DNA of 61,555 bases from a virus (Duplodnaviria; Caudoviricetes), in IMG/VR virus record IMGVR_UViG_3300032246_000804, positions 1 through 61,555 of that record, one strand, 5' to 3'. Shown piece after piece: positions 3,001 through 44,529 of the stretch. Within the stretch, counting starts at the first letter, position 1. Every line of letters begins with the position of its first letter. A program made the translations under genes and the position numbers. The notes beneath the pieces were generated by a model. That model saw only the letters and a program-made list of their open reading frames with translations. It was not told the origin of the DNA and did not search any database.

Positions 3001-6000
3001 TAACTGCTACAGGTACATATACACATGCATCTGGTGCTTTATCATTAGGTGGAAACTTAACTACAGGTATATTCAATACAAACAGTCAATTGTTTAGGTC
3101 AATTGCTTTTAGTACGTTCAATATTGTTCTTGCTCATACTACAGCAGCACAGACAGTTTTGAATATGCCAGATATAGTTAATTTCTCATATACTGGAACA
3201 GGTGGTTTTACTACTGCAATGAGTGTCACAAGAACATTTACATCTGGTACACAAATGGGTATACCCGGTAGTATAAACTACCTTGGAAACCAATCATCAC
3301 TTATAGCAACAAATCCAGTATTTGCTTTTGGTACAAATATAGATTTCACATGGGAAGCTTGGGTATATACGACTAGTGTTACTGGTGGTGCAATATTTAA
3401 TAATCAAAATTCTGCGGTTGACACCTCAGGTGCATCTGCATTTGTTTCTGGCGGCCAAGCATATTGGTATAATCTAGGACTTAACGCTGGTGCTGGTGGA
3501 ACTTTTGGAACTACAGCAGCTGGTTCTATACCAGACAATACTTGGACTCATGTTGTTTTTCAAAGAAGAGGTACAGATTTTGAAATATACATTAACGGAA
3601 CATTAGCTAGTACATATACACCTTCTAGCCCAATTAACATGGGTGCAAGTTCACAAAGATTTTATATTGGTAGAGATAATAACGTTTTTTACACAGGTAG
3701 AATTACAAATATTCGTGTGGTTAAAAGCGTTGCGGTTTATACAGGTAATTTTACTTCATCAGCAATTCCACTTGCCGCAGCACAATCTTCTGGTACAAAC
3801 ATTAGTGCTCTTACAGGATTCAATACTTCACTGATGTTAAATGCGGCTAGAGGTGCTGCGTTTACAGATTCAAGTATAAATGCATTTGGTTTTACTCAAG
3901 TTGGTTCACCCACTACAAATACTTCTTCACCATTTCCTGATGCTTATTACGGACAATATCCAAATCTTTCACTTACATCTGGAGCATCTGTTTCTACGTT
4001 TAGTACAAGTAGTTTATTTAATACATTGAATTTTACTGGTAGTACTAGTGCTCCAACAGGAAGTGTTTCTATTAATAATCTGACATTAGATACTGCGCCA
4101 TCATATACCAATTTAGGTGTGATATGTGTAGGTACTGGTTCAATTATACAAAATAATAAAACATTATCTTCATTTGAAGTTAAAAATGGTTACGTTGGTG
4201 GTACAGTTACAATAGTAACAAATCCTCTTGCAACAGGCAGTTATACACAAACATCAGGAACAATAGATTTTTCTTCATTGACGTTAACAGTTTCTGGTAC
4301 ATATACTTACGTTGCCGGCACTCAGCTTAACATGTCGATTATAAATTGTGCTACATTAGCAGTTAATGGTACATATAATTTCTCATCAGGAACTGTTAAT
4401 CCATCAACAAGCGTTGTTGTAACTACACCTGGTGCATTTACTTATGGTGGTACAGCAACATTAGGTGCAACACCCACATTTACACACACTTCAGGAACAG
4501 TAACACTAAACAAAGATTATTCTTTAACTGCTACTGGTACATACACACTAACAGCTGGTGCATTGACATTAGGTGGTAATTTAACAACAGGTATATTTGC
4601 TTCTAATAATACCAATGTACGTTCAATTGGATTTAGTACATTCAATATTGTTCTTGCACACACCACAGCAGCAACAGTTGTGTTGAGTATGGCTGATTTG
4701 ACAAACTTTTCTTATACTGGTACTGGTGCTTTTACTTCAACAATGTCTGTTACAAGAACCTTTACTGTTGGAAGTTCTGTGGGTAGTTCAACAACTGCTC
4801 CAAACATATCAATCATATCAGGTGCTTCAATACCAACTTTTGCAAGCGGTAGCTGGATTAATAAATTAGATTTTACTGGAAGCACATGTACACCGGCTGC
4901 CTCAACAGTAAACATTAATAGTTTAACTCTGGCAACAGGTGGAACATATACCAACTTGAGCATTAATACTGTCGGTACTGGCGCAATAATACCTAACGGA
5001 AAAACATTATCTGCATTGGTTGTTAATAACGGAGCAGGAACAACAACACTATCAGGCGCTCTTGGTGTATCAACATATACACAAACAGCTGGCACAATTA
5101 ATTTTGCCTCATTCACTTTAACTTGCAGTAGTACAGTTTTGTTTACGGCAGGAACATTAAGTAATATTGGAACAATCACTTGTACAACATTTAATGTTAA
5201 TGGAACATTTGCTCATTCAACAGGAACAATTACTCCGTCTGTCAGTTTTACCGTAGGTAATAGTGGTTCATACACACAAAGCGGAACATCAGTACTAAGT
5301 TCTGTTGCAACATTCTTACAAAATATAGGTGATGTCACATTCAGAAGTACATATTCACTAACAGCTACAGGAACATACACACTAACAGCTGGTACTTTGA
5401 CATTAGGTGGTAATTTAACAACAGGTATATTCAGCACTGTTGGCTATGTTGGTTATTATTCAATAGCTTTCGGCACATTTAATATTGTATTGGCGCATAC
5501 TACTGCTGGAACAACTGTTCTTAATATGCCAGATTCAAGTCTTCTCACACCAACAGGTAGTGGCGGATTTGTAGCAGATGCATCTATAACAAGAACATTT
5601 ACTTGTGGTACAACAAGTGGTTCTGCAACATCTTCACCTAATTTATCACTAACAGGTAGTGGAACAGCAATAGCAACTTTCACAACAGGTAGTTGGTTCA
5701 ACACTCTTAATTTTGGTACAACAGCTTTTGCAATAGCAACGACTGCTTTGAATTTAAATGGGTTAACATTATCCACTGGTGGAACATATACCAATTTAAC
5801 TCCTACCGCTAGAGGAACAGGAACATTTACTAGCAATGGTAAAAGTCTTTCTACTCTTATAATAAATGCGCCGGCCGCAACTGTTACAACTGCTGATGCA
5901 CTAACAATTACTGGTGCATTGACTTTAACAGCAGGAACATTATCTACCCCATATAATATAACTAGTGCATCATTTGCTAGTTCAGGACCATACGCGCGAT

Positions 6001-35498: not shown

Positions 35499-35939
35499 AT
35501 GACATACATTAAAGATGTATTTGGTAATGACCTTTTTGGTAAACTTCAACCTTTCACGGTTGGATTTGACGAAACAATGGAACTGTTACGCAAAACAGCT
35601 GAACAAACACAGAAATCCGTTGGATATCCTCCATATAATATCAAGCAAGTAAAAGAAAACAAGTACGTCATTGAAATGGCTGTTGCTGGTTTTGCTAAGA
35701 CTGACCTTGAAATTACCATGGACGGAAATAAACTTCTTGTCAAAGGTGCAACAAAAGATGATGATGGTGAAGAATTCCTGTACAAAGGTATTGCTAACCG
35801 TGCATTTGAACGTGCATTTACTTTGAACGACAAAGTTGAAATCAAAGACGCTGAATTGGTAAATGGTATGTTGAAAATTTGGTTGGAAAACATTGTGAAA
35901 ACTCAAGACGCCATTAAGAAAATTGGCATCAAGGAGTAA
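35499..35939 (+). CDS. hsp20: Small heat-shock protein Hsp20 (IbpA-like)
   Basis: YPPYNI, IEMAVAGF, FLYKGIANRAFERAFTL, AELVNGML. Confidence 0.95.
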   Translation: MTYIKDVFGNDLFGKLQPFTVGFDETMELLRKTAEQTQKSVGYPPYNIKQVKENKYVIEMAVAGFAKTDLEITMDGNKLLVKGATKDDDGEEFLYKGIANRAFERAFTLNDKVEIKDAELVNGMLKIWLENIVKTQDAIKKIGIKE

Positions 35940-35944
35940 TCAAA

Positions 35945-36115
35945 ATGAAATCAATTTTATCTTATTTCCAAAAAATATTTGGAGATTTCAATAAGCCACA
36001 AACTTATGGATCCGCGTTAGAAGAATATATTATGAGACATTCACCACAAACTTCATGTGATGTGGATCGTTTGACTCGTCAATTTGAAATTCGACATTCC
36101 GGAAGAGGCTGGTAA
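35945..36115 (+). CDS. Small hypothetical protein (56 aa; not in the ORF track)
   Basis: AAGGAG SD; MKSILSYFQKIF...ALEEYIMRHSPQTSCDVDRLTRQFE...RGW. Confidence 0.65.
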   Translation: MKSILSYFQKIFGDFNKPQTYGSALEEYIMRHSPQTSCDVDRLTRQFEIRHSGRGW

Positions 36116-36130
36116 CTTGACGGGAGGGGC

Positions 36131-36159
36131 TTGACAAAGCTCCTCCTTTGTGTTATAGT
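36131..36159 (+). promoter_or_regulatory. Sigma70-like promoter embedded in a terminator-like hairpin
   Basis: TTGACA-N17-TATAGT; hairpin GGAGGGGCTT-GACA-AAGCTCCTCC-TTT. Confidence 0.75.
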
Positions 36160-36168
36160 GTGTACATC

Positions 36169-36372
36169 ATGAAAAAACTTGAACAAAAACCAATCAAACT
36201 ACGTAACAAATTGAACCCGTTAGAGTTCTACTGGACCTTTTCGTCTTGGGGTATGGAACAAATTGACGGTGTTGATTTCTTACCTGTAACTAAATTCGAC
36301 CCGTCGGATAATAAAACCCATCAATTATATCGGATTCGTAAAGACTCCTTGGAGAAAGTGAAAAATGGCTGA
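36169..36372 (+). CDS. Hypothetical protein
   Basis: ATG just downstream of the promoter; overlaps the next gene. Confidence 0.6.
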   Translation: MKKLEQKPIKLRNKLNPLEFYWTFSSWGMEQIDGVDFLPVTKFDPSDNKTHQLYRIRKDSLEKVKNG

Positions 36373-36655
36373 TAAAAAATTATACATTGTTGAAACTATT
36401 TCTATGTTTCGTATGCGTTATGTTGTAGAAGCTTTAGAAGAAGAACATGCACAAGATGAAGTTGTTTGCGGAGTTGGAAATACTGATTTTCAGGAATTTT
36501 CACAACATCATGTTGATGAAGTGATTACAAGTAGCCGTGAAATTTCAAAAGAAGAATATATAAAAATGTTTGATAAAGACAATGATTATATGCAATCATG
36601 GTCAGAAGAACAAAAAATGTCTCTTATCAATAAAATTGATTACGACAAGGGATAA
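36365..36655 (+). CDS. Hypothetical acidic protein
   Basis: YIVETISMFRMRYVVEA...EFSQHHVDE. Confidence 0.65.
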   Translation: MADKKLYIVETISMFRMRYVVEALEEEHAQDEVVCGVGNTDFQEFSQHHVDEVITSSREISKEEYIKMFDKDNDYMQSWSEEQKMSLINKIDYDKG

Positions 36656-36664
36656 ATAATTCTC

Positions 36665-36739
36665 CTGGCGTTCGTTCAACGGATAGGACATGATTCTTCT
36701 AAAGTCATTATAGAGGTTCGATTCCTCTACGCCGGACCA
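36665..36739 (+). tRNA. tRNA-Arg(TCT)
   Basis: Cloverleaf; anticodon loop CTTCTAA; GTTCGATT; encoded CCA. Confidence 0.92.
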
Positions 36740-36744
36740 GATAA

Positions 36745-36819
36745 GCGACTGTAGCATAGCGGTAGTGCCGGGAACTCATAATTCCTACGGGGGAGGTTCG
36801 AATCCTCTCGGTCGCACCA
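36745..36819 (+). tRNA. tRNA(CAT), probably Ile2 (lysidine type), otherwise Met
   Basis: Cloverleaf; anticodon loop CTCATAA; paired 1:72; CCA. Confidence 0.85.
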
Positions 36820-36833
36820 TTAATATTAAAAAT

Positions 36834-37247
36834 ATGAGACAAAAATTTATTGATGCGTACATGGATGTTGCAAAAAGATTTGCCGCATTATCGTCCGCAA
36901 AGCGCCTACAAGTAGGTGCTATTATTGTGAAAGATGATAGAATCATTTCTATTGGTTATAATGGAATGCCTGCTGGATGGACAAATGAATGTGAAGATGA
37001 AGAAGGTGTGACTAAGCTTGAAGTGATTCATGCAGAAGCAAATGCTATTGCAAAATTGGCTAAGTCTTCCGAGTCTGGTGATGGTGCCACGATGTTCTTA
37101 ACGCACGCTCCTTGCATTCATTGTGCTAAACAGATATACACAGCAGGCATCAAACAAGTTTACTTTGGAATACCTTATCGTGATGAATCTGGAATTGCTT
37201 TTTTATTAAAATGTGGAGTAAATGTTTGGTCAGACCATAAGACTTAA
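36834..37247 (+). CDS. cd: dCMP deaminase
   Basis: QVGAIIV, IGYNG, HAEANAI, PCIHC; ATG at 36834 lies after the tRNA. Confidence 0.93.
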   Translation: MRQKFIDAYMDVAKRFAALSSAKRLQVGAIIVKDDRIISIGYNGMPAGWTNECEDEEGVTKLEVIHAEANAIAKLAKSSESGDGATMFLTHAPCIHCAKQIYTAGIKQVYFGIPYRDESGIAFLLKCGVNVWSDHKT

Positions 37248-37272
37248 ATAAATACAAATAAAAGGGCCCGTT

Positions 37273-37779
37273 ATGTTTTTAAAAATTATTGGTTGTCCTG
37301 ATCCAGAATTTAAGCCGTTTTTGACTCGGTCTGCACACTATTTTGCTGAAAAATTATTCAGTAAACAATTATCACCACACATATTTGTCGTTGTTAAGTT
37401 TGATAAAAAGATGATAGACCATGGTAGTTGTGAAGTTACTGGCGATAATATAAAAAATAAACCTAGAGAGTTTTTAATTCACATAAAAGAAGGCCTTGGT
37501 GCTCCTTCAACATTTAGAACCATGGCTCATGAATTGGTTCATGTGAAACAATTTGCTTATGGTCATACTAATGATACTTTGACTGTCTGGCATAAGAAAG
37601 AAATAGATTCAGAAAATTTAGATTATTGGTTTCATCCTTGGGAAATTGAAGCTTATGGGTTAGAAACCTGTTTGGTTTCAAAGTTTGCAATTAAAGAAAA
37701 GTTGTGGGAAGTTTTTGAAGAATTTAAAAATCCAGATGATCCTGAAAAATATCAAGAAATAAAATGGAAAATTTCATAA
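37273..37779 (+). CDS. Zincin-like metallopeptidase
   Basis: AHELVHVKQ (HExxH), PWEIEAY. Confidence 0.75.
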   Translation: MFLKIIGCPDPEFKPFLTRSAHYFAEKLFSKQLSPHIFVVVKFDKKMIDHGSCEVTGDNIKNKPREFLIHIKEGLGAPSTFRTMAHELVHVKQFAYGHTNDTLTVWHKKEIDSENLDYWFHPWEIEAYGLETCLVSKFAIKEKLWEVFEEFKNPDDPEKYQEIKWKIS

Positions 37780-37782
37780 TCC

Positions 37783-37790
37783 ACTAAATA
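37783..37790 (+). promoter_or_regulatory. Late promoter-like motif (ACTAAATA) upstream of the leader ORF
   Basis: Same CTAAATA variant occurs at 21366 and 44522. Confidence 0.45.
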
Positions 37791-37832
37791 AGTTGTATAT
37801 ATAATTTTATAGATTAAATTTTCGGAGTTATA

Positions 37833-37940
37833 GTGTCCCAGTTCCTCAAATCCTTATCGTCAACATGTGAGTATCGCACACCCTTTATTGGTAGCGATAA
37901 TCAACCATGGGCGCATGTAGGAGGTTGTGGAGTACGGTAA
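37833..37940 (+). CDS. Putative attenuator leader peptide (35 aa) MSQFLKSLSSTCEYRTPFIGSDNQPWAHVGGCGVR
   Basis: GGAG SD at 37824-37827, GTG start, TAA at 37938; its 3' end is complementary to the 5' arm of the downstream terminator. Confidence 0.65.
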   Translation: MSQFLKSLSSTCEYRTPFIGSDNQPWAHVGGCGVR

Positions 37941-37968
37941 CAGACTAGAAAACTAAACCAGATTCCAC

Positions 37969-38000
37969 AAACCTCACAACGAAAGTTCTGAGGTTTTTTT
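37969..38000 (+). terminator. Intrinsic terminator with an overlapping antiterminator option
   Basis: AAACCTCACAAC-GAAA-GTTCTGAGG-TTTTTTT. Confidence 0.85.
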
Positions 38001-38023
38001 GTTGTTCCTATACAACAAATGTA

Positions 38024-38052
38024 TTGACAGAGGCATCGACTTCTGTTATACT
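38024..38052 (+). promoter_or_regulatory. Sigma70-like promoter, tRNA unit 1
   Basis: TTGACA-N17-TATACT with TG extension. Confidence 0.85.
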
Positions 38053-38060
38053 CGGTTTTC

Positions 38061-38106
38061 GGTTGAGAAATCAACCAAATGTTCTTTAACAAGTTAAGTG
38101 TAATTT
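38061..38106 (+). promoter_or_regulatory. boxB-like hairpin plus boxA antitermination element, copy 1
   Basis: GGTTGA-GAAA-TCAACC, then TGTTCTTTAACAA (E. coli rrn boxA is TGCTCTTTAACA). Confidence 0.75.
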
Positions 38107-38180
38107 ACGGGTGTTGTGTAATGGTAGCACATCAGACTTTGACTCTGAGAGCAGAGGTTCGATACCTTTCACCCGTTCCA
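38107..38180 (+). tRNA. tRNA-Gln(TTG)
   Basis: Cloverleaf; loop CTTTGAC; CCA. Confidence 0.9.
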
Positions 38181-38258
38181 TATAAAAACACATTGTCCTA
38201 GGCTGTGACCTAGTCCATCAGAAGTCCTTAGAGACAGAAACAATGTGTTTCTATATGG
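38178..38258 (+). ncRNA. Long-stem-closed structured element 1
   Basis: CCATATAAAAACACATTGT ... ACAATGTGTTTCTATATGG terminal inverted repeat with internal hairpins. Confidence 0.5.
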
Positions 38259-38265
38259 TATTTTT

Positions 38266-38353
38266 GGAAGAGTGGGTGAGTGGTTTAAACCAGCAGTCTT
38301 GAAAACTGCCGACTGTAAAAGGTCCCTGAGTTCGAATCTCAGTTCTTCCACCA
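38266..38353 (+). tRNA. tRNA-Ser(TGA)
   Basis: Long variable arm; loop CTTGAAA; CCA. Confidence 0.93.
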
Positions 38354-38359
38354 AACATT

Positions 38360-38446
38360 GGAGAGTGGGCTGGATGGTAAGGCACCGGATTGCTAATCCG
38401 ACGCTGCGAAAGTGGCGAGTGGGTTCGACTCCCACACTCTCCGCCA
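38360..38446 (+). tRNA. tRNA-Ser(GCT)
   Basis: Long variable arm; loop TTGCTAA; G73; CCA. Confidence 0.93.
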
Positions 38447-38451
38447 AATAT

Positions 38452-38527
38452 GTACGTGTGACCCGAACGGTGAGGGAGGTGATTGCAAACCACCAGTATG
38501 CAGGTTCGAGCCCTGTCACGTACTCCA
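38452..38527 (+). tRNA. tRNA-Cys(GCA)
   Basis: Loop TTGCAAA; U73; CCA. Confidence 0.9.
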
Positions 38528-38581
38528 TTCTCTATTTGCGAATGGCGAATGTTGTTTTTTGCAACACTATGAAAATAGTTG

Positions 38582-38609
38582 TTGACAAATTGTATGGTTG
38601 TGATATACT
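38582..38609 (+). promoter_or_regulatory. Sigma70-like promoter, tRNA unit 2
   Basis: TTGACA-N16-TATACT with TG extension. Confidence 0.8.
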
Positions 38610-38619
38610 CCATGCATAC

Positions 38620-38661
38620 GTTGAGAAATCAACATGTTCTTTAACAAGTTAAGTGTAATTT
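38620..38661 (+). promoter_or_regulatory. boxB-like hairpin plus boxA antitermination element, copy 2
   Basis: GTTGA-GAAA-TCAAC, then TGTTCTTTAACAAGTTAAGTGTAATTT identical to copy 1. Confidence 0.75.
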
Positions 38662-38664
38662 TGT

Positions 38665-38739
38665 GCTCCTGTCGTCTACTGGCTAGGACGCTGCCCTTTC
38701 AAGGCGGAAAAGACGGATCGAAACCGTTCAGGAGTACCA
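38665..38739 (+). tRNA. tRNA-Glu(TTC)
   Basis: Loop CTTTCAA; CCA. Confidence 0.92.
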
Positions 38740-38849
38740 TATTAAAGCATACTACAGGTTGGGTTAGATTCGCGGTCTAACTATTTGGGTGTCATAGACT
38801 AGGTAATTACTAGTACCGGCACTAAGATACGCAGTGTGTTTTAATATGG
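38737..38849 (+). ncRNA. Long-stem-closed structured element 2
   Basis: CCATATTAAAGCATACT ... AGTGTGTTTTAATATGG stem with G-U pairs; inner hairpins GTTAGA/TCTAAC and ACTAG/CTAGT. Confidence 0.5.
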
Positions 38850-38855
38850 TAATAT

Positions 38856-38929
38856 GGGGGTATAACTTAGTGGTAAAGTAGTAGGCTTTTAACCTATTAA
38901 CCAGAGTTCAATTCTCTGTGCCCCTACCA
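38856..38929 (+). tRNA. tRNA-Lys(TTT)
   Basis: Loop CTTTTAA; CCA. Confidence 0.92.
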
Positions 38930-38938
38930 AAGATTTTT

Positions 38939-39015
38939 GCCTTGGTGACGGAATTGGTATACGTACTGGTCTTAGAAACCAGGTTTTGCGAGTTCGAGTC
39001 TCGCCTAAGGCACCA
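38939..39015 (+). tRNA. tRNA-Leu(TAG) with short variable loop
   Basis: Loop CTTAGAA; A73; 5-nt variable region; CCA. Confidence 0.88.
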
Positions 39016-39018
39016 AAT

Positions 39019-39207
39019 TCTCGTTACTACTTTCGTTAAAGTAGCGTTTGATTAGCGAGAGAGATCCGGTGGCAGAAAACCGTTAGCGAGTGTAACCCAC
39101 TCAGACTCTGATAGGCAGTTATCTTTCTGCACACAGGTACCAGATAAAAAAGATGGACAGAGTAACCGCTCAATTAAGGGCTGGCGTGGAAAACCAGTAG
39201 CTTATCC
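39019..39207 (+). ncRNA. About 190-nt multi-hairpin RNA with a possible pseudoknot, family unidentified
   Basis: TCTCGTTA/TAGCGAGA, CTACTTT/AAAGTAG, CGGT/ACCG, GAGTG/CACTC, TTATCT/AGATAA, CTGG/CCAG; loop GCAGAAA complementary to loop TTTCTGC. Confidence 0.6.
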
Positions 39208-39213
39208 TAATTT

Positions 39214-39289
39214 GGTCTTAAAGTGTTCATGGACGCACGACGGCTTGTCACGCCGTAAGAGTGGGGATCGTTACCCCCTAAGACCGCCA
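39214..39289 (+). tRNA. tRNA-Asp(GTC)
   Basis: Loop TTGTCAC; G73; CCA; atypical T-loop ATCGTTA. Confidence 0.9.
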
Positions 39290-39295
39290 ATTTAT

Positions 39296-39330
39296 GGAGA
39301 AGCGGATGCTACGGCATCTGTTATCCACCA
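39296..39330 (+). ncRNA. CCA-ended minihelix-like RNA
   Basis: GGAGAAGCGGATGC-TACG-GCATCTGTTATCC-ACCA, followed by the AGTTTT spacer typical of this array. Confidence 0.5.
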
Positions 39331-39336
39331 AGTTTT

Positions 39337-39411
39337 GCTGATGTAGCTCAGAGGAAGAGCATTCGCTTGATAAGCGAAAGGCCGACATTTCGAAATTGTC
39401 CATCAGTACCA
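39337..39411 (+). tRNA. tRNA-Ile(GAT)
   Basis: Loop TTGATAA; CCA. Confidence 0.9.
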
Positions 39412-39418
39412 AGTTTTA

Positions 39419-39502
39419 GGAGTGGATGCTCTAATGGTAGGGCAGCAGGCTGTAACCCTGTGGCCGCAAGGCAAGTAGGTTCGATCCCTACCCACTCCAC
39501 CA
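39419..39502 (+). tRNA. tRNA-Tyr(GTA)
   Basis: Loop CTGTAAC; variable arm GCC-GCAA-GGC; CCA. Confidence 0.92.
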
Positions 39503-39509
39503 AGTTTTA

Positions 39510-39583
39510 GCCCTATTAGTATAATGGTATTACACCTGTTTTGTAATCAGGTTACGGCAGTTCGATTCTGTCATGGGGCACCA
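39510..39583 (+). tRNA. tRNA-Thr(TGT)
   Basis: Loop TTTGTAA; CCA. Confidence 0.9.
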
Positions 39584-39592
39584 AGTTTTTAT

Positions 39593-39659
39593 GCGGTAAG
39601 GTATTAACTGTCTGAGGGTCCACCTTAGAAGTGTTGTGAAAATCAATATTACCGCTCCA
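39593..39659 (+). ncRNA. D-armless tRNA-Gly(TCC)-like RNA
   Basis: Acceptor GCGGTAA/TTACCGC-T-CCA; arm CTGAG-GGTCCAC-CTTAG; T-like arm with loop TGAAAAT; no D-arm. Confidence 0.55.
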
Positions 39660-39666
39660 GTTTTAT

Positions 39667-39744
39667 CCGTGTGTAGCGCAGTCTGGTTAGCGCATCTGCT
39701 TTGGGAGCAGAGGGTCGGGAGTTCGAATCTCTCCACACGGACCA
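39667..39744 (+). tRNA. tRNA-Pro(TGG)
   Basis: Loop TTTGGGA; CCA. Confidence 0.95.
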
Positions 39745-39759
39745 AGTTTTTTTGAATAT

Positions 39760-39835
39760 TCCGGTGAAGCAAACTAGGTGTGGGCAGAGGACTGTTAATC
39801 CTTGAAGCCAGGTTCGAATCCTGGGACCGGAGCCA
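39760..39835 (+). tRNA. tRNA-Asn(GTT)
   Basis: Loop CTGTTAA; G73; CCA; atypical D-arm. Confidence 0.85.
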
Positions 39836-39840
39836 ATTAT

Positions 39841-39915
39841 GGGCTGTTAGTGATAGTGGTAGCACAGGGGCTTTGCAAGCCTTAGGCGGGAGTTCGATTC
39901 TCCCACGGTCCACCA
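39841..39915 (+). tRNA. tRNA-Ala(TGC)
   Basis: Loop TTTGCAA; G3:U70; CCA. Confidence 0.93.
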
Positions 39916-39922
39916 TTTTTTA

Positions 39923-39997
39923 GGTGATATGACGTAGATGGATGCGTAGCGGTTTCATAAGCCGATGAGGAAGGCTCGGTACCTTCTATCACCACCA
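39923..39997 (+). tRNA. tRNA-Met(CAT), probably elongator
   Basis: Loop TTCATAA; paired 1:72; CCA. Confidence 0.82.
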
Positions 39998-39999
39998 GT

Positions 40000-40159
40000 T
40001 TTGTAGTAGGAGCAGTGCCTAGTGGGAAGGGCAATCAGAGGCCTTTAAAAACAAAGTAGTAAAAGTCTTTATATCAAAAAGATGAGTATCGAAAAGCCTT
40101 TATGATACACGGAGTAGCGGGAGGGGGTGATGCCCTGATGTGTCTACACCGGCTACAAA
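40000..40159 (+). ncRNA. About 160-nt stem-closed RNA, family unidentified
   Basis: TTTGTAGT/GCTACAAA ends; AGGGCAATCA/TGATGCCCT inner helix; GTATC/GATAC hairpin. Confidence 0.45.
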
Positions 40160-40166
40160 TTTATTT

Positions 40167-40244
40167 GCGCCTTTAGTTCAACTGGATAGAACACCGGGCT
40201 ACGAACCCGTGAGGTTGGGAGTTCAAATCTCTCAGGGCGCACCA
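40167..40244 (+). tRNA. tRNA-Arg(ACG)
   Basis: Loop CTACGAA; CCA. Confidence 0.92.
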
Positions 40245-40260
40245 TTTTTAGGAGTTAAAT

Positions 40261-40434
40261 ATGAATGAAGCAGGTAAAGGATCTTCACCTAGACCAAAAA
40301 ATGTTTCTGATGAAGAATATGCAAATCGTTGGGATGCAATCTTTCAAAGAGACAAACGTGTAGAAGAAGACCAACAAAATGAAGATGAAGAATTTGATCG
40401 TATTAGTTTAAATTCAAAAAAATTAAGTCAGTAA
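40261..40434 (+). CDS. Small hypothetical protein (57 aa; not in the ORF track)
   Basis: AGGAG SD; MNEAGKGSSPRPKNVSDEEYANRWDAIF... Confidence 0.7.
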   Translation: MNEAGKGSSPRPKNVSDEEYANRWDAIFQRDKRVEEDQQNEDEEFDRISLNSKKLSQ

Positions 40435-40435
40435 T

Positions 40436-40509
40436 GTCTCTCTGGTGTAATGGCAGCACTACGGTCTCCAAAATCGTAAGTGAGGGTTCGAGTCCTTCGG
40501 GGGATGCCA
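40436..40509 (+). tRNA. tRNA-Trp(CCA)
   Basis: Loop CTCCAAA; G73; CCA; G-U-rich acceptor stem. Confidence 0.88.
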
Positions 40510-40525
40510 ATAAAAGAAAGTTAAT

Positions 40526-41017
40526 ATGAAAAAATTTAATTTGGATGAAGTAAAATCATTTATTACGAAACAAGGACCTGATACTAAAGTTTATCTTGGT
40601 GCAGACTCCGAACGTATGCGTATTGATGGTGTATGGTATGCAGATTACGCTTTAGCAGTTGTTGTTCATATTGATGGCCGTCATGGTTGTAAGATTTTTG
40701 GTTTTGTTGACCGTGAATTGGATTATGACCACAAGAAAAGCAAACCTGCAATGCGTCTGATGACAGAAGTTTATAAAGTTTCTGCTTTGTTCCAAGAAAT
40801 GCAAGATGTATTAGAAGACCGTCATGTTGAAGTTCATTTGGACCTAAACAAATCTGACGAACACGGTTCTTCTTGTGTCGTTCAACAAGCAATTGGTTAT
40901 ATCAAAGGTACATGTAACATGACACCAATGGTTAAACCAGATGCTCCTGCTGCTTCTTTCTGTGCAGACCGTTTAAAACGGATTCTAGCAGAACAAGAAT
41001 TAGCAGAAGCTCAGTAA
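40526..41017 (+). CDS. RNase H-like YkuK (DUF458) family protein
   Basis: VYLGADS, AVVVH, RLMTEV, EVHLDLN, KPDAPAASFCADR. Confidence 0.8.
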   Translation: MKKFNLDEVKSFITKQGPDTKVYLGADSERMRIDGVWYADYALAVVVHIDGRHGCKIFGFVDRELDYDHKKSKPAMRLMTEVYKVSALFQEMQDVLEDRHVEVHLDLNKSDEHGSSCVVQQAIGYIKGTCNMTPMVKPDAPAASFCADRLKRILAEQELAEAQ

Positions 41018-41023
41018 GTATAA

Positions 41024-41097
41024 GCGGGTATGATGTAAAGGTAGCCTGTGACCTTGCCAAGGTTAGTGTGAGAGTTCGATTCTCTCTACCCGCTCCA
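41024..41097 (+). tRNA. tRNA-Gly(GCC)
   Basis: Loop TTGCCAA; U73; CCA. Confidence 0.9.
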
Positions 41098-41105
41098 GTT
41101 TTTAT

Positions 41106-41180
41106 GTGGTTGTTAGTTTAGTGGCAAAACCGCGGGTTGTGATTCCGCTATCACGGGTTCGATTCCCGTACATCCACCCA
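41106..41180 (+). tRNA. tRNA-His(GTG)
   Basis: Loop TTGTGAT; G-1:C73; CCA. Confidence 0.9.
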
Positions 41181-41182
41181 AT

Positions 41183-41257
41183 GCCTTGTTAGCTCAGCGG
41201 TAGAGCGCCCTCCTTACAAGTGGGATGTCGGCGGTTCGATCCCGTCACAAGGTACCA
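41183..41257 (+). tRNA. tRNA-Val(TAC)
   Basis: Loop CTTACAA; CCA. Confidence 0.93.
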
Positions 41258-41306
41258 ATAATCGCCTTTGTTGACGGCGTACAATGAGATAAATTGTCAA
41301 CAACTT

Positions 41307-41380
41307 GCTCTTATAGTATAATGGCATTACACGTCCTTGGTAAGGATGAAACACAAGTTCAATTCTTGTTAAGAGCACCA
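41307..41380 (+). tRNA. tRNA-Thr(GGT)
   Basis: Loop TTGGTAA; CCA. Confidence 0.9.
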
Positions 41381-41385
41381 ATTTA

Positions 41386-41461
41386 GCAACTTTAGCTGAT
41401 GTGGTCATAGCGGCGGTCTGAAGAACCGTTGAAAGAGGTTCGATTCCTCTAGGTTGCACCA
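41386..41461 (+). tRNA. tRNA-Phe(GAA)
   Basis: Loop CTGAAGA; CCA. Confidence 0.9.
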
Positions 41462-41462
41462 A

Positions 41463-41537
41463 GTCTTTGTAGTTCAACGGATAGAACGCATTCCTCCTAA
41501 GAATGAGATACAGGCTCGATTCCTGTCGGAGACACCA
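41463..41537 (+). tRNA. tRNA-Arg(CCT)
   Basis: Loop CTCCTAA; CCA. Confidence 0.9.
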
Positions 41538-41559
41538 ATGGTATTAATATAAAATATAC

Positions 41560-41588
41560 TTGACAAATTACACTTAACTTGATATAAT
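41560..41588 (+). promoter_or_regulatory. Consensus sigma70 promoter for the last three tRNAs
   Basis: TTGACA-N17-TATAAT with TG extension. Confidence 0.88.
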
Positions 41589-41597
41589 GTACGAAAT

Positions 41598-41684
41598 GCG
41601 ACTGTGGCGTAATTGGTAGCCGCAACAGACTTAAAATCTGTCGCTCGAGAGGGCGTACCGGTTCGAGTCCGGTCAGTCGCACCA
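41598..41684 (+). tRNA. tRNA-Leu(TAA)
   Basis: Loop CTTAAAA; long variable arm; CCA. Confidence 0.95.
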
Positions 41685-41702
41685 AAGTCACATATATAAT
41701 AT

Positions 41703-41779
41703 AGCAGAGTATGGAAGAGGTCTATCCGCTTGGTCTCATAAGCCAAGAATCGCAGGTTCAAATCCTGCCTCTGCAACCA
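41703..41779 (+). tRNA. tRNA-Met(CAT), initiator-like
   Basis: A1:A72 mismatch; loop CTCATAA; TTCAAAT T-loop; CCA. Confidence 0.85.
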
Positions 41780-41783
41780 ACAT

Positions 41784-41857
41784 GCGGGATTAGTTTAATG
41801 GTAAAATTAGAGATTTCCAATCTCCAGTCATCAGTTCGATTCTGATATCCCGCTCCA
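41784..41857 (+). tRNA. tRNA-Gly(TCC)
   Basis: Loop TTTCCAA; U73; CCA. Confidence 0.92.
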
Positions 41858-41885
41858 TTAAAGTGTTTAACCATATAAATAATGG

Positions 41886-42005
41886 ATGCACTTTAACATA
41901 ATCATCACGTTTAACGATTTATTATTCCTACTTGGGTGTGTACCCTTAGTAATGATATTTTGGGTATTGTTCAAAGATTGGTCAAACGATAGAAACCGAC
42001 ATTAA
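41886..42005 (+). CDS. Possible small membrane peptide (39 aa) MHFNIIITFNDLLFLLGCVPLVMIFWVLFKDWSNDRNRH
   Basis: TATAAATA at 41874-41881 just upstream; one hydrophobic helix; stop overlaps the stop of the convergent gene; no SD. Confidence 0.4.
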   Translation: MHFNIIITFNDLLFLLGCVPLVMIFWVLFKDWSNDRNRH

Positions 42006-42619
42006 GCTCCATTTTTTGCAGCCGCATCTAATTGTTTCTTTTGTTCTTGTTCTCTAGCCCATTGTTGTTCTCTAATGATTTTTGCACGCTTTATCTGTGC
42101 AGCTTCAAACGCTTTTTGTTCTTCAGCCATGCTGTAAAACTGGACGCCTAACATAACAAATGCAGAAATAACAAGTCCAAATGCTATAGTGTACAAGCTT
42201 ATCATCATATACTTAGCCATCTTTTCTTTATGTGCTTGTTTGGCTTTTGCAACCGCTTCTTCACCTTCACGTTTTTCTTTCATTAATCTGGTACGTTCTT
42301 TAATCATGTCTTCCCAGATTTGTGGCTTACCTAATTGCCAATAAATCATATCTTTCAATGCTCTTTCATCTTCACGTAATTTATTGCTATGCATAGCAAA
42401 CTCAAGTGCTTGGCGACTAAGTTGAGCATCTGTTTTTCCAATGGAATTATGTTTAGCTTTAATGCTAGCTACGTGGACCGCATCAGCTGATTCAAAGAAG
42501 TGACCAACTTGGCCAATAATACTATTAATGTCTTTGCCCATGGCTATGGCTTGTTTAATGCCACTAATTGCTGATTGTGCCGCAGAGAAAGCAAGACTTA
42601 TGCTAATTGGATCAATCAT
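42002..42619 (-). CDS. Hypothetical membrane-anchored coiled-coil protein
   Basis: MIDPISISLAF N-terminus; TM segment YMMISLYTIAFGLVISAFVMLGVQFY. Confidence 0.75.
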   Translation of the reverse strand: MIDPISISLAFSAAQSAISGIKQAIAMGKDINSIIGQVGHFFESADAVHVASIKAKHNSIGKTDAQLSRQALEFAMHSNKLREDERALKDMIYWQLGKPQIWEDMIKERTRLMKEKREGEEAVAKAKQAHKEKMAKYMMISLYTIAFGLVISAFVMLGVQFYSMAEEQKAFEAAQIKRAKIIREQQWAREQEQKKQLDAAAKNGA

Positions 42620-42622
42620 ACT

Positions 42623-42844
42623 TTATCCGCCAAGTTTACAAATTTCAGGATATAGTCTATTAGAACAATCTTTCTTAGACCATTCAATACAGTTTACTTT
42701 ATTTTCTTGAGGCGTATTTGACCACTTCCATCTTACACAAATTAATACCTCATCCTTTTTTGGAGGTAAAATATTTTGGTCGGCTTCTATTGAACTAACT
42801 AGAAGTGTTGATGATAATGCGGCAACGAAAATAATTCTAAACAT
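42623..42844 (-). CDS. Small secreted Cys-containing protein
   Basis: Signal-like MFRIIFVAALSSTLLVSS; four Cys (CVRWKW...CIEWSKKDC...C). Confidence 0.6.
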   Translation of the reverse strand: MFRIIFVAALSSTLLVSSIEADQNILPPKKDEVLICVRWKWSNTPQENKVNCIEWSKKDCSNRLYPEICKLGG

Positions 42845-42868
42845 TGTAATAAGTATACCAATAAATTG

Positions 42869-42897
42869 TTGACAACATAACAAAAGAATGATATACT
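42869..42897 (+). promoter_or_regulatory. Sigma70-like promoter of the DNA polymerase operon
   Basis: TTGACA-N17-TATACT with TG extension. Confidence 0.8.
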
Positions 42898-42916
42898 AAC
42901 GCATCAAATCAACCAT

Positions 42917-42924
42917 TATTTATA
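42917..42924 (-). promoter_or_regulatory. Late promoter TATAAATA on the minus strand
   Basis: Plus strand reads TATTTATA; lies upstream of the two minus-strand genes. Confidence 0.6.
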
Positions 42925-42934
42925 AGGAAGTATC

Positions 42935-43243
42935 ATGGTAATTATTGTTTTAAAATTAATCACAGGAGAAGAAGTTCTCGGAGAAGTACAATCTCAAACT
43001 GAAACTGAATGGATTTTAGAAAACCCAGTAGGTATTGCAGTTGTTCGTGGCCAAAACGGTCAGCCTAATGTAGGATTTGCACCTTTCCCAATCCATGCAC
43101 CACAGAAACCAGGAAGTATTGTTGTTTTAGCAAAGAAACATGTTGTATACTCTTATGTTCCTGCCGAGGACTTTATCACTAATTATAATCAAATCTTTGG
43201 TTCAGGCATTGTTCTTCCACCAACAAAACAACTTATCGTTTAA
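42935..43243 (+). CDS. Hypothetical protein (possible Sm-like fold) upstream of gp43
   Basis: LKLITGEEVLGEV...YNQIFGSGIVLP; AAGGA SD. Confidence 0.7.
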   Translation: MVIIVLKLITGEEVLGEVQSQTETEWILENPVGIAVVRGQNGQPNVGFAPFPIHAPQKPGSIVVLAKKHVVYSYVPAEDFITNYNQIFGSGIVLPPTKQLIV

Positions 43244-44529
43244 TGCAATTTTATACTAACGTACAATGTTTCGGTAATAGTATTCTTTACCGAGGTGTGA
43301 TGGATGGCAAAAGAGTCAAACAACGAATTGACTACTCGCCATCACTTTACATCAGAAGCAAAACTGGTCAATACAAAACGCTTGATGGTAAAACACTAGA
43401 CCGCAAGCGTTTTGATGACATTAATGGTGCCCGTGAATACATCAAAGATTTTAAAGATGTGTCCGGCGCACCTAAAATCTATGGAAACAATCGTTATGAG
43501 TATGCCTTTATCGGTGAACAACACAAACAAATGGTTGAATGGGATCAAGATAAAGTCGTTATTGCAGTTGTTGATATTGAAGTTGGTTCAGAGAATGGTT
43601 TCCCTGATCCATATCTCGCTAACGAACCTATTACTGCCATCTGTTTGAAATATATCAATGGTTTGACAGTCGTATTTGGCTGTGGTGATTATGTTGTCCA
43701 AGGTAATGAAGTTTATATTAAATGCAAAGATGAATGGACACTCTGCAAAAGATTCATCAAACAATGGACTAATAATTGTCCTGATGTGTTGACTGGATGG
43801 AACACCAAGTTCTTTGATATTCCATATTTGATTAATCGTTTTCGTAAAATCGTAGGCGAAGAAGAAACTAAACTCTTATCGCCATGGAAATATATTACTG
43901 AACGTAAGACTGTTATTAACGGCCGACCAATGACTGCATATGATATTGTCGGCGTTGCATCACTTGATTATATCGAACTGTATCGTTGGTATGCTCCTGA
44001 TGGTAAATCACAAGAATCATATCGTTTAGATGCAATTGCAACAGCTGAGATTGGTGAGACCAAACTGTCGTATGATGAATTTGATAACTTACATGAATTG
44101 TATCGTTTGAATTATCAAAAGTTTATTGAGTACAACATCAAAGACGTTGAACTGATTATTAAACTGGAAGAAAAACTAAAATTGTTGGAGTTGGGATTGA
44201 CTCTTGCATATGATACTAAGTGTAACTATGAAGATATATTTGCACAGACACGCATGTGGGATGCACTCACATATAATCGGTTGATGCAGGATAATATTGT
44301 TGTTCCTCCAAAAGAAACACAAGAAAAAGATGGTATGTTTGCCGGTGCATATGTTAAAGACCCACAAGTTGGACTACACGAATGGCTTGCATCATTTGAC
44401 TTGAATAGTTTGTATCCTCATTTGATGATGCAATATTCCATAAGTCCTGAAAATCTTGTGGAAAGAAGTTATATTGAAGATAGAAGACAAAAACTGATTG
44501 GGGAGTTAAAGTTGAGAAATACTAAATAA
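43243..44529 (+). CDS. gp43: Family B DNA polymerase gp43, N-terminal part (exonuclease plus motif A)
   Basis: DIEV, GWNTKFFDIPY, YNIKDV, GAYVKDP, SFDLNSLYPH. Confidence 0.95.
   Translation: MQFYTNVQCFGNSILYRGVMDGKRVKQRIDYSPSLYIRSKTGQYKTLDGKTLDRKRFDDINGAREYIKDFKDVSGAPKIYGNNRYEYAFIGEQHKQMVEWDQDKVVIAVVDIEVGSENGFPDPYLANEPITAICLKYINGLTVVFGCGDYVVQGNEVYIKCKDEWTLCKRFIKQWTNNCPDVLTGWNTKFFDIPYLINRFRKIVGEEETKLLSPWKYITERKTVINGRPMTAYDIVGVASLDYIELYRWYAPDGKSQESYRLDAIATAEIGETKLSYDEFDNLHELYRLNYQKFIEYNIKDVELIIKLEEKLKLLELGLTLAYDTKCNYEDIFAQTRMWDALTYNRLMQDNIVVPPKETQEKDGMFAGAYVKDPQVGLHEWLASFDLNSLYPHLMMQYSISPENLVERSYIEDRRQKLIGELKLRNTK

Follow-up and report, generated by a model that had tools for sequence, protein, structure and literature searches.

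Introduction

The closest described relatives of the element reported here are the leaders of bacterial ribosomal RNA (rrn) operons and the boxA signals that they carry. In E. coli these leaders have promoters P1/P2 and a boxB-boxA-boxC series, the rrn antitermination complex (rrnTAC) comprises NusA/B/E/G, SuhB and S4, and RNase III cuts the 16S and 23S leader-trailer helices. As reported by Stagno et al. (PMC3177189), NusB-NusE recognises 8 nt of boxA, with transversions at positions 2, 5 and 6 not tolerated, making G2, C5 and U6 critical, and with position 1 differing between E. coli, Aquifex and lambda. A functional boxA consensus from gamma-proteobacteria, GYTCTTTAANA, was given by Baniulyte et al. 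in 2017 (PMC5725501), in a survey that covered the protein-coding genes of these bacteria and by its authors' own statement did not consider non-coding RNAs. Warner et al. (PMC10250234) put the rrn leader-trailer helix, which covariation supports, at 25-40 bp, state that E. coli 16S requires more than 17 bp, and report that deletion of boxB has little effect in rrn. In the model set out there and in a 2026 bioRxiv preprint, boxA-bound NusB anchors the 5' helix strand until the trailer emerges; how this antitermination complex brings the two ends of pre-rRNA together is still being worked out. Here we describe a transfer RNA (tRNA) array of a T4-like phage, carried by the IMG/VR virus record IMGVR_UViG_3300032246_000804 (61,555 nt, analysed in its entirety and from here on called the window), which is headed by two cassettes of promoter, boxB-like hairpin and boxA-like motif and is spanned by a long-range complementarity resembling the rrn leader-trailer helix.

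In rrnH of E. coli MG1655, P2 is followed by a hairpin, the leader boxA TGCTCTTTAACAA and then directly by TTTATCAGACAATCTGTGTGGGCAC, whose complement GTGCTCACACAGATTGTCTGATGAAA follows the 16S 3' end, and the 16S-23S spacer has a boxA of its own, TGCTCTTTAAAAA. The phage array is laid out alike in its tandem strong sigma70 promoters, in a hairpin followed by a boxA that is predicted to be single-stranded and is 1 nt off the leader or spacer boxA of rrnH, in a second hairpin-boxA set within the operon as in the 16S-23S spacer, in a 5' helix strand that begins right after boxA, and in a co-varying long-range helix around stable-RNA cargo. It differs from rrn in that this cargo consists of 19-26 tRNAs, small open reading frames (ORFs) and non-coding RNA and not of rRNA, that two identical 5' strands share one 3' strand, that boxA stands at +1 in half of the cassettes and the 3' strand is often also a promoter spacer, that the element is carried by a virulent-type T4-like phage, and that the helix is shorter (14-22 bp rather than the 25-40 bp given for rrn).

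With the nut sites of lambdoid phages, at which N protein acts together with host Nus factors, the array has in common a phage boxA RNA, which by analogy probably engages host NusB and NusE, and a GNRA-like hairpin adjoining it. It departs from them in its order, hairpin then boxA where nut has boxA then boxB, in a boxA of the rrn type (UUUAA) and not the lambda type, in having no known N-like protein (none was searched for), and in serving a stable-RNA operon of a T4-like myovirus instead of delayed-early mRNA. The tRNA clusters of T4 and T5, which we take to lie in an early-type promoter context, also combine phage tRNAs with co-transcribed small stable RNAs (annotated as rnaC and rnaD in T4 and as RNAI, RNAIII and RNA1 in T5); unlike the present array, neither is headed by a sense GYTCTTTAANA, and no leader-trailer helix is annotated in either, none having been searched for. 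The boxA sites surveyed in PMC5725501 likewise lie outside rRNA and follow GYTCTTTAANA, whereas neither a phage tRNA array nor a helix is described in those parts of that paper on which we draw.

Results

Two promoter-hairpin-boxA cassettes head the tRNA array

A first-pass annotation of the window, made from the sequence alone, had noted two sigma70 promoters at the head of the array, each followed by a hairpin and by an identical 27-nt block right before a tRNA, and all three observations were borne out (Table 1). The block, TGTTCTTTAACAAGTTAAGTGTAATTT, is identical at 38080-38106, where it ends directly (0 nt) before tRNA-Gln(ttg) (38107), and at 38635-38661, where it ends 3 nt before tRNA-Glu(ttc) (38665); a search allowing up to 3 mismatches returned exactly these two matches in the window, and none in 100 dinucleotide shuffles. 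Promoter-like sites as such are not enriched across 36000-43000 (21, compared with 17.9 +/- 4.1 in shuffles), and it is because of their score and conserved position, not the number of sites, that P1 and P2 count.

The same annotation had taken the whole block for boxA. This holds for 13 of its 27 nt, which form a boxA-like motif, whereas the rest, overlooked at first pass, is the 5' strand of a long-range helix, the two elements overlapping by 6 nt, so that mimicry of rrn would cover processing as well as antitermination. Both copies of the 13-nt motif (2/2) fit GYTCTTTAANA and are its sole matches in the 61,555 bases. The form in the window, TGTTCTTTAACAA, and that of most relatives, TGTTCTTTAAAAA, each differ from one rrnH boxA (leader or spacer) at position 3 only; the RNA versions are written 5'-GUUCUUUAAAAA and 5'-GUUCUUUAACAA. 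In the predicted folds of both window leaders the hairpin is formed and boxA is unpaired, and from the promoter consensus boxA is predicted at about +21 to +33 of the transcript.

Table 1. Coordinates of the cassettes, the helix strands and associated features in the window
Feature	Position	Strand	Details
Terminator-like hairpin	37970-38000	+	AACCTCA...TGAGGTT then T-run; read from sequence; upstream of P1
Promoter P1	38024-38052	+	TTGACA-17-TATACT, extended -10 TG; consensus score 11/12
boxB-like hairpin 1	38061-38076	+	GGTTGAGAAATCAACC; 6-bp stem, GAAA loop; sequence, fold, covariation
boxA-like motif 1	38080-38092	+	TGTTCTTTAACAA (13 nt); fits GYTCTTTAANA; unpaired in minimum free energy (MFE) and centroid folds
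Leader arm 1 (5' strand)	38087-38106	+	20 nt, 95% complementary to 41565-41584 (pair I3); overlaps last 6 nt of boxA, abuts tRNA-Gln
Helix-enclosed cargo	38107-41537	+	23 tRNA genes (counting from arm 1; 19 counting from arm 2) plus two small ORFs and structured spacers
Promoter P2	38582-38609	+	TTGACA-16-TATACT, TG; 11/12
boxB-like hairpin 2	38620-38633	+	GTTGAGAAATCAAC; GTTGA-GAAA-TCAAC; sequence, covariation, fold
boxA-like motif 2	38635-38647	+	TGTTCTTTAACAA; fits GYTCTTTAANA
Leader arm 2 (5' strand)	38642-38661	+	identical to arm 1; precedes tRNA-Glu (38665); pair I4
ORF within array	40526-41017	+	Pfam RNaseH_like (PF04308, DUF458 type), 51.1 bits, cut-off 25; phrog_11311
Promoter P3	41560-41588	+	TTGACA-17-TATAAT; 12/12; trailer arm is its spacer
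Trailer arm (3' strand)	41565-41584	+	AAATTACACTTAACTTGATA; reverse complement of the 3' part of the block: 17 nt exact, 20 nt at 95%

It had further been proposed that the boxA variant could help to identify the host, and this we could not sustain, the variant being generic and a scan for the hairpin and boxA composite yielding no rrn leader; in the genomes of 185,579 species there were 3 matches, which we regard as chance, all of coding type and without tRNA or rRNA context. Through one of them we came to the rrn leader of Priestia megaterium, in which a hairpin is followed by a divergent boxA-like stretch, and this was set aside as not informative.

Two other features of the cassettes were rejected, namely a small ORF in the block (ATG at 38079 and 38634), as the base before TG varies in relatives and the start codon is not conserved, and the inverted repeat I2 (38577-38601 with 41281-41305), which we judged to be a by-product of the partly palindromic -35 region. 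A separate inverted repeat, TGTTGT-N6-ACAACA, lies at 38000-38017, just upstream of the -35, and is also seen at most cassette and 3'-arm promoters of relatives; it represents either the end of the terminator-like element before it or a site bound by protein. RNA-library contigs span boxA 2, arm 2 and tRNA-Glu (38634-38742) and the terminator, P1, leader and tRNA-Gln (37756-38165) in X15, and 38080-38172 in X18; these bridging contigs give weak support, may stem from DNA carry-over or from relatives, and cannot give RNA starts, ends or levels.

The boxA core is conserved at the heads of related arrays

Relatives were gathered with the RNaseH_like ORF of the array as anchor, which gave 192 IMG/VR stretches, and the best 80 of the 192, at 86-98% identity, were used; some of these 80 loci overlap on one contig, and unique sequences were counted where it mattered. 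The 70 nt upstream of each tRNA were searched for the core GTTCTTTAAAAA, at most 1 mismatch being allowed and tRNAs less than 100 nt from the start of a locus being excluded. In this survey the core was found upstream of 49/51 tRNA-Gln(ttg) and 43/53 tRNA-Glu(ttc) genes, compared with 4/66 for tRNA-Leu(taa), 1/69 for tRNA-Leu(tag), 1/60 for tRNA-Asp, where it lies within a neighbouring tRNA and is probably a false match, and 0 for every other tRNA kind. It is always sense to the tRNAs.

Across 67 unique contexts the 12-nt core is nearly invariant, and variation is seen at position 1, in the spacers of the promoters, in the hairpins and in the arms that follow. Position 1 is the one variable boxA position in the phage clade, and G2, C5 and U6 are kept in the window copies and in most of the 67 contexts. 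This pattern, free at position 1 and fixed from G2 onward, matches the NusB-NusE recognition pattern reported in PMC3177189. The motif GTTCTTTAAMAA occurs 1-2 times per genome in five relatives of 166-177 kb (CheckV completeness 98-100%), the reversed control giving 0-1; these sites are the array-head cassettes in 4/5 of these near-complete relatives, and in the other, G005, a promoter-hairpin-boxA cassette near the array. A search for the core joined to the beginning of tRNA-Gln matched at least 117 IMG/VR contigs.

The anatomy of the cassettes was analysed in 65 unique contexts with 90 nt of upstream sequence. Directly upstream of 60/65 stands a sigma70-type promoter scoring at least 9/12. 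Hairpin-free contexts number 33/65, with boxA 5-8 nt after the -10 hexamer and hence at the predicted first transcribed nucleotides (about +1), and in 27 promoter-bearing contexts a gap of 25-39 nt after the -10 is filled by a hairpin. The promoter-less contexts (5/65) are L034 and L067, which are spacer-type copies after a tRNA with unrelated hairpins, L042 and L061, which follow a terminator-like hairpin, and a likely false match inside a tRNA. The commonest hairpin, RTTGA-GAAA-TCAAY, shows exchange of G-C to A-U with G.U intermediates, and in alignment A1 95.8% of cells are paired, 3/6 pairs are changed on both sides and 0/500 shuffles reach its covariation score, all of which rests on few events; some cassettes carry unrelated hairpins instead of the GAAA type. 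The order of hairpin before boxA is the rrn order, and the hairpin pairs co-vary. The first-pass inference that an rrn-type boxB-boxA leader co-opts host Nus antitermination for a long untranslated tRNA transcript is partly supported. It agrees with these results and is strengthened by the consensus fit of boxA, its 1-base difference from rrnH, its positional conservation and its unpaired state in the predicted fold, and it needs amending with respect to the hairpin, which is optional; its absence in half of the contexts agrees with the weak effect of boxB deletion in rrn (PMC10250234).

In a more distant relative (L070, a 177-kb contig, 2830-3020) two tandem promoter-hairpin-boxA cassettes stand 110 nt apart with no tRNA after the first, one hairpin being GTTAA-GAAA-TTAAC and the second different, an arrangement reminiscent of P1/P2 in rrn.

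Compared at close and at distant range with 50,697 phage records, the DNA of the cassette region had tRNA-level matches only. In seven cultured tRNA-bearing phages (BUCT-ZZ01 and DLP_6, both of which carry the anchor ORF, together with KVP40, RHph_I1_18, Melnitz, T4 and T5) the counts of boxA matches equal those of the reversed controls and none precedes a tRNA in sense. The sequence GCTCTTTAAAA, the same as the E. coli spacer boxA core, occurs in T5 (NC_005859.1) at 4978-4988 and 116509-116519 (-), perhaps by chance; the two sites are near opposite ends of the record, presumably in terminal repeats.

The sequence after boxA is complementary to a trailer 3.5 kb downstream

The 3' part of the block forms a leader arm whose complement, the trailer arm, sits 3.5 kb downstream between tRNA-Arg(cct) and tRNA-Leu(taa), in the spacer of P3. 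The RNA duplex energy is -20.9 kcal/mol with arm 1 (23 tRNAs enclosed) and -21.5 kcal/mol with arm 2 (19 enclosed). P3 itself is predicted to drive the last three tRNAs (Leu-taa, Met and Gly-tcc), without a boxA.

In relatives the post-boxA sequence is alike in both cassettes of one genome and different between lineages, the arm forms including GTTAAGTGTAATTT, TTTGCATTGCTT, TTTGTAGAGTCAA, TTTATAGAGTTATT, TTTGTTGTAGTT, TTTGTAGAGTTAAT, TTAGATTGTAT and TTTGCGTACCAA. At least 8 arm classes can be told apart. Each has a reverse complement of its own, 14-22 nt long and 2.5-8 kb further on, with 19-26 tRNAs enclosed. In a cross-test of 14 representative loci, own-class scores were 13-18 compared with 7-10.5 for unrelated classes, and similar arm classes (L032, L037, L042, L052 and L055) cross-scored up to 13. 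Shuffled arms gave means of 8.7-9.2 and maxima of 11-13, and for the window the own score was 16, against a shuffled mean of 8.7 and maximum of 13.

With G.U and A.C scored alike, 31 distinct arm pairs score at least 12, and in these Watson-Crick pairs number 526, G.U pairs 14, A.C pairs 0 and other mismatches 9, events that are not all independent, one 3' arm being counted with both 5' arms and in related genomes. An excess of 14 G.U over 0 A.C points to pairing selected in the tRNA-sense RNA and not in DNA. About 50 distinct arm pairs were listed in all, those below the threshold belonging for the most part to loci too short to reach the expected 3' arm.

The 3' arm lies inside a promoter (spacer, -35 or -10) in the window and in L006, L010, L032, L041, L050, L037 and L067, the arm sequences differing, and between two tRNAs with no promoter in L011, L023, L051 and L052. 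Since some 3' arms thus lie between tRNAs without a promoter, the complementarity is not a by-product of promoter sequence. In a replicate set of loci chosen by the boxA-tRNA-Gln pattern, without the anchor ORF, 15/78 loci had at least 6.5 kb downstream, and a complement was present in 15/15 of these, with scores of 10.5-19. The lowest of these scores (10.5-11.5) overlap the shuffled maxima of 11-13, and we accepted them as real because they lie at a consistent distance from their cassettes and share a new class of arm.

The phage, its tRNA array and other array RNAs

The window is the entire virus record and represents a genome fragment, since near-complete relatives measure 166-177 kb. It encodes structural and replication proteins of T4 type, namely a large terminase, tail sheath, portal, gp23-like major head protein, SbcC-like nuclease, split DNA polymerase and DnaB-like helicase, and the major head protein is ~64% identical to its counterparts in Methylophilales phage Melnitz, pelagimyophages and Synechococcus phage S-SKS1. 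The stretch is present in lake and freshwater metagenomes, where 14 DNA runs, drawn from 8 studies, contain between 0.21 and 0.79 of it. The phage is an uncultured freshwater T4-like myovirus, virulent-type and non-lambdoid.

ARAGORN detects 28 tRNA genes in the window, all on the + strand, 26 of them within 38107-41857. The terminator-like hairpin upstream of P1 is predicted to insulate the array from the upstream protein genes; having fewer than 3 G-C pairs, it was skipped by the consensus terminator scan, and a GGG/CCC-stem with a T-run also lies upstream of cassette 1 in most relatives. The RNaseH_like ORF keeps 86-98% identity across the clade and has further relatives in KVP40-like, Stenotrophomonas, Rhizobium and roseophage genomes, some records labelling it a ribonuclease, and its product could help to process the array RNA. 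Many of the tRNAs have an encoded CCA followed by a common trailer, CCA-AGTTTT or CCA-GTTTT (39289-41100; repeat families D1, D2 and D10), which may be a shared 3' processing signal. The ARAGORN tRNA-Asp(gtc) at 39214-39289 (+) is the only one of the 28 without an Rfam tRNA or tRNA-Sec match at E <= 1, and may be aberrant or part of an adjoining stable RNA. At a permissive threshold, Rfam returned only tRNAs and sub-threshold chance matches across 35500-43500.

Between tRNA-Leu(tag) and this tRNA-Asp lies a conserved structured non-tRNA RNA of ~190 nt (39016-39213, +), with homologues at 70% coverage or more in 34/162 related loci (72-94% identity). An alignment of 17 sequences contains 45 predicted pairs, 10 with compensatory changes, and long invariant loops; the permissive Rfam scan assigned it no family, and its single-sequence fold energy is unremarkable (z = -0.24). 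Short lake metatranscriptome contigs confined to 39016-39213 reach word depths of 338-365, compared with about 2-130 for other pieces. Runs from two studies also have sequencing adapters abutting at 39027 and 39030, which is no more than a hint. By analogy, this RNA may correspond to the small stable RNAs of T4 and T5 tRNA clusters. Two spacers (both +) are also structured: 38740-38855, of 116 nt, has a 14-bp closing stem and an MFE of -34.1 (z = -3.27, with 0/200 shuffles as stable), and 38181-38265, of 85 nt, has z = -1.96; among the 162 loci the former has homologues in 5 and the latter in none.

Discussion

On balance we favour the interpretation that the array is an rrn-operon mimic, in which Nus loading at boxA is combined with a processing helix that closes co-transcriptionally. 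The motifs, their match to the consensus, their clade-wide position and the RNA covariation of the helix are observed, with boxA unpaired in the predicted folds, and Nus binding, antitermination, tethering and cleavage would follow by analogy with rrn. Host sigma70 RNA polymerase would start at P1 or P2 and expose, near the nascent 5' end, an optional boxB-like GAAA hairpin and then a single-stranded boxA (N-GUUCUUUAA-A/C-AA). Standing within the first 1-35 nt, boxA would recruit host NusB-NusE and thereby the rrn-type antitermination complex, making elongation across 3.5 kb of mostly untranslated RNA faster and Rho-resistant, and the boxA-Nus tether would hold the 5' arm near the RNA exit channel until it pairs with the trailer strand, transcribed 3-8 kb later, and closes the array into a loop. 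The closed stem would be a substrate for host RNase III or a similar double-strand-specific nuclease, with RNase P and 3' processing enzymes finishing the tRNAs, and where the 3' arm overlaps the next promoter, cleavage of the stem would also split read-through RNA from that unit. The short, boxA-free transcripts expected from P3, with three tRNAs, would fit a need for the signal on the long unit only. A bolder version, namely that a large freshwater T4-like clade has moved the whole rrn looping module (Nus loading, 5'-strand tether and 3-8 kb loop closure) to non-ribosomal cargo, half of the cassettes being a bare boxA at the first nucleotides, we put forward tentatively, as a possibility that falls a little short of an even chance.

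Several observations weigh against the rrn-mimic interpretation. The array is without a demonstrated rut site or Rho-dependent terminator, and some lineages have boxA transversions at positions critical in E. coli and lambda. U6A (GTTCATT) affects the Gln cassette in L019, L035 and L060, and in L019 and L035 the Glu cassette as well, and C5A (GTTATTT) is found in cassette 2 of L042, L046, L061-63 and L065. In the hairpin-free contexts boxA lies at the very 5' end of the RNA, for which the rrn and nut literature, as far as it is covered here, documents no precedent. A helix of 14-22 bp is short beside that of enterobacterial 16S, where more than 17 bp are needed, and L035, although long enough, offers no better than a weak complement of 13 bp, three of its pairs being G.U. 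A search for a phage RNase III was positive in 0/5 relatives, so that any cleavage would fall to a host enzyme. A conserved boxC is absent, the post-boxA sequence varying among the arm classes with only the pairing kept. Furthermore, 0/7 of the cultured tRNA-bearing phages have a sense consensus boxA heading a tRNA cluster, so this is not a general solution.

The GAAA hairpin recalls lambda boxB, and a GNRA-type GAAA loop on a 5-6 bp stem is kept across many cassettes, which would suit a reading of the 12-mer, with or without the hairpin, by a phage-encoded factor (an N-like antiterminator or another RNA-binding protein) instead of by host NusB-NusE alone. The paired lineage-wide core changes, with U6A in both cassettes of L019 and L035, look like co-adaptation to one reader, and the cassette is limited to one phage clade. 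We nevertheless think such a factor unlikely, while allowing it a small but real chance: the hairpin is missing in 33/65 contexts and elsewhere swapped for unrelated ones, the order of hairpin and boxA is that of rrn and not nut, no candidate protein was identified (none was searched for), and the core perfectly fits the host-factor consensus given in PMC5725501. The helix would be real either way. It is also the best-supported part of the system and overlaps boxA by 5-6 nt, and an account in terms of processing or stability only might be entertained, in which the helix sets the precursor ends and the A/U-rich 12-mer is an endonuclease site (for example for RNase E or G) or a protective 5' end, with no Nus role. 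Structured, tRNA-rich RNA may not need protection from Rho, and the C5A and U6A variants do persist. A mere A/U-rich site, however, would not hold G2, U3-U4, C5 and U6-U8 nearly constant over 67 contexts while the arms vary, nor reproduce the Nus consensus base for base, and the motif is missing upstream of all internal tRNAs; we give this account a slim chance.

An element acting in DNA, whether a repressor or activator operator or a promoter-proximal element, with the inverted repeats as protein-binding or recombination sites, would fit the several lineages whose 3' arm forms part of a promoter spacer, and the half of the contexts whose motif adjoins the -10 region. The spacing between -10 and motif ranges from 5 to 39 nt, however, and four cassettes (five contexts with the likely false match) have no promoter; the motif is always oriented in the sense of the tRNAs, the arm mismatches (14 G.U and 0 A.C) are unexpected from DNA symmetry, and four lineages have their 3' arm between tRNAs where there is no promoter. 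We consider a DNA-level role highly improbable.

By full-text search we found no published account of a phage tRNA array with a boxA or a leader-trailer helix, though unsearched papers may contain one; one apparent literature match concerned the BOXA1R primer. What appears to be new is the application, by a non-lambdoid phage, of an rrn-type boxA and leader-trailer architecture, itself of a known kind, to a tRNA array. The same signals enclosing tRNAs instead of rRNA separate the bridging role from ribosome assembly, and the co-varying helix variants are built-in controls. If the bolder version given above is true, the chaperone and looping function of the rRNA antitermination complex would be cargo-independent and portable, and the phage leaders would amount to naturally occurring minimal modules for Nus loading, supplied with at least 8 orthogonal leader-trailer pairs. 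For annotation, the module of promoter, optional hairpin, GTTCTTTAAMAA and arm marks transcription-unit boundaries of tRNA arrays. For phage biology, boxA would here be put to use by a phage that is virulent-type and non-lambdoid, and the system offers a mechanism by which large tRNA arrays may be expressed as one long untranslated transcript.

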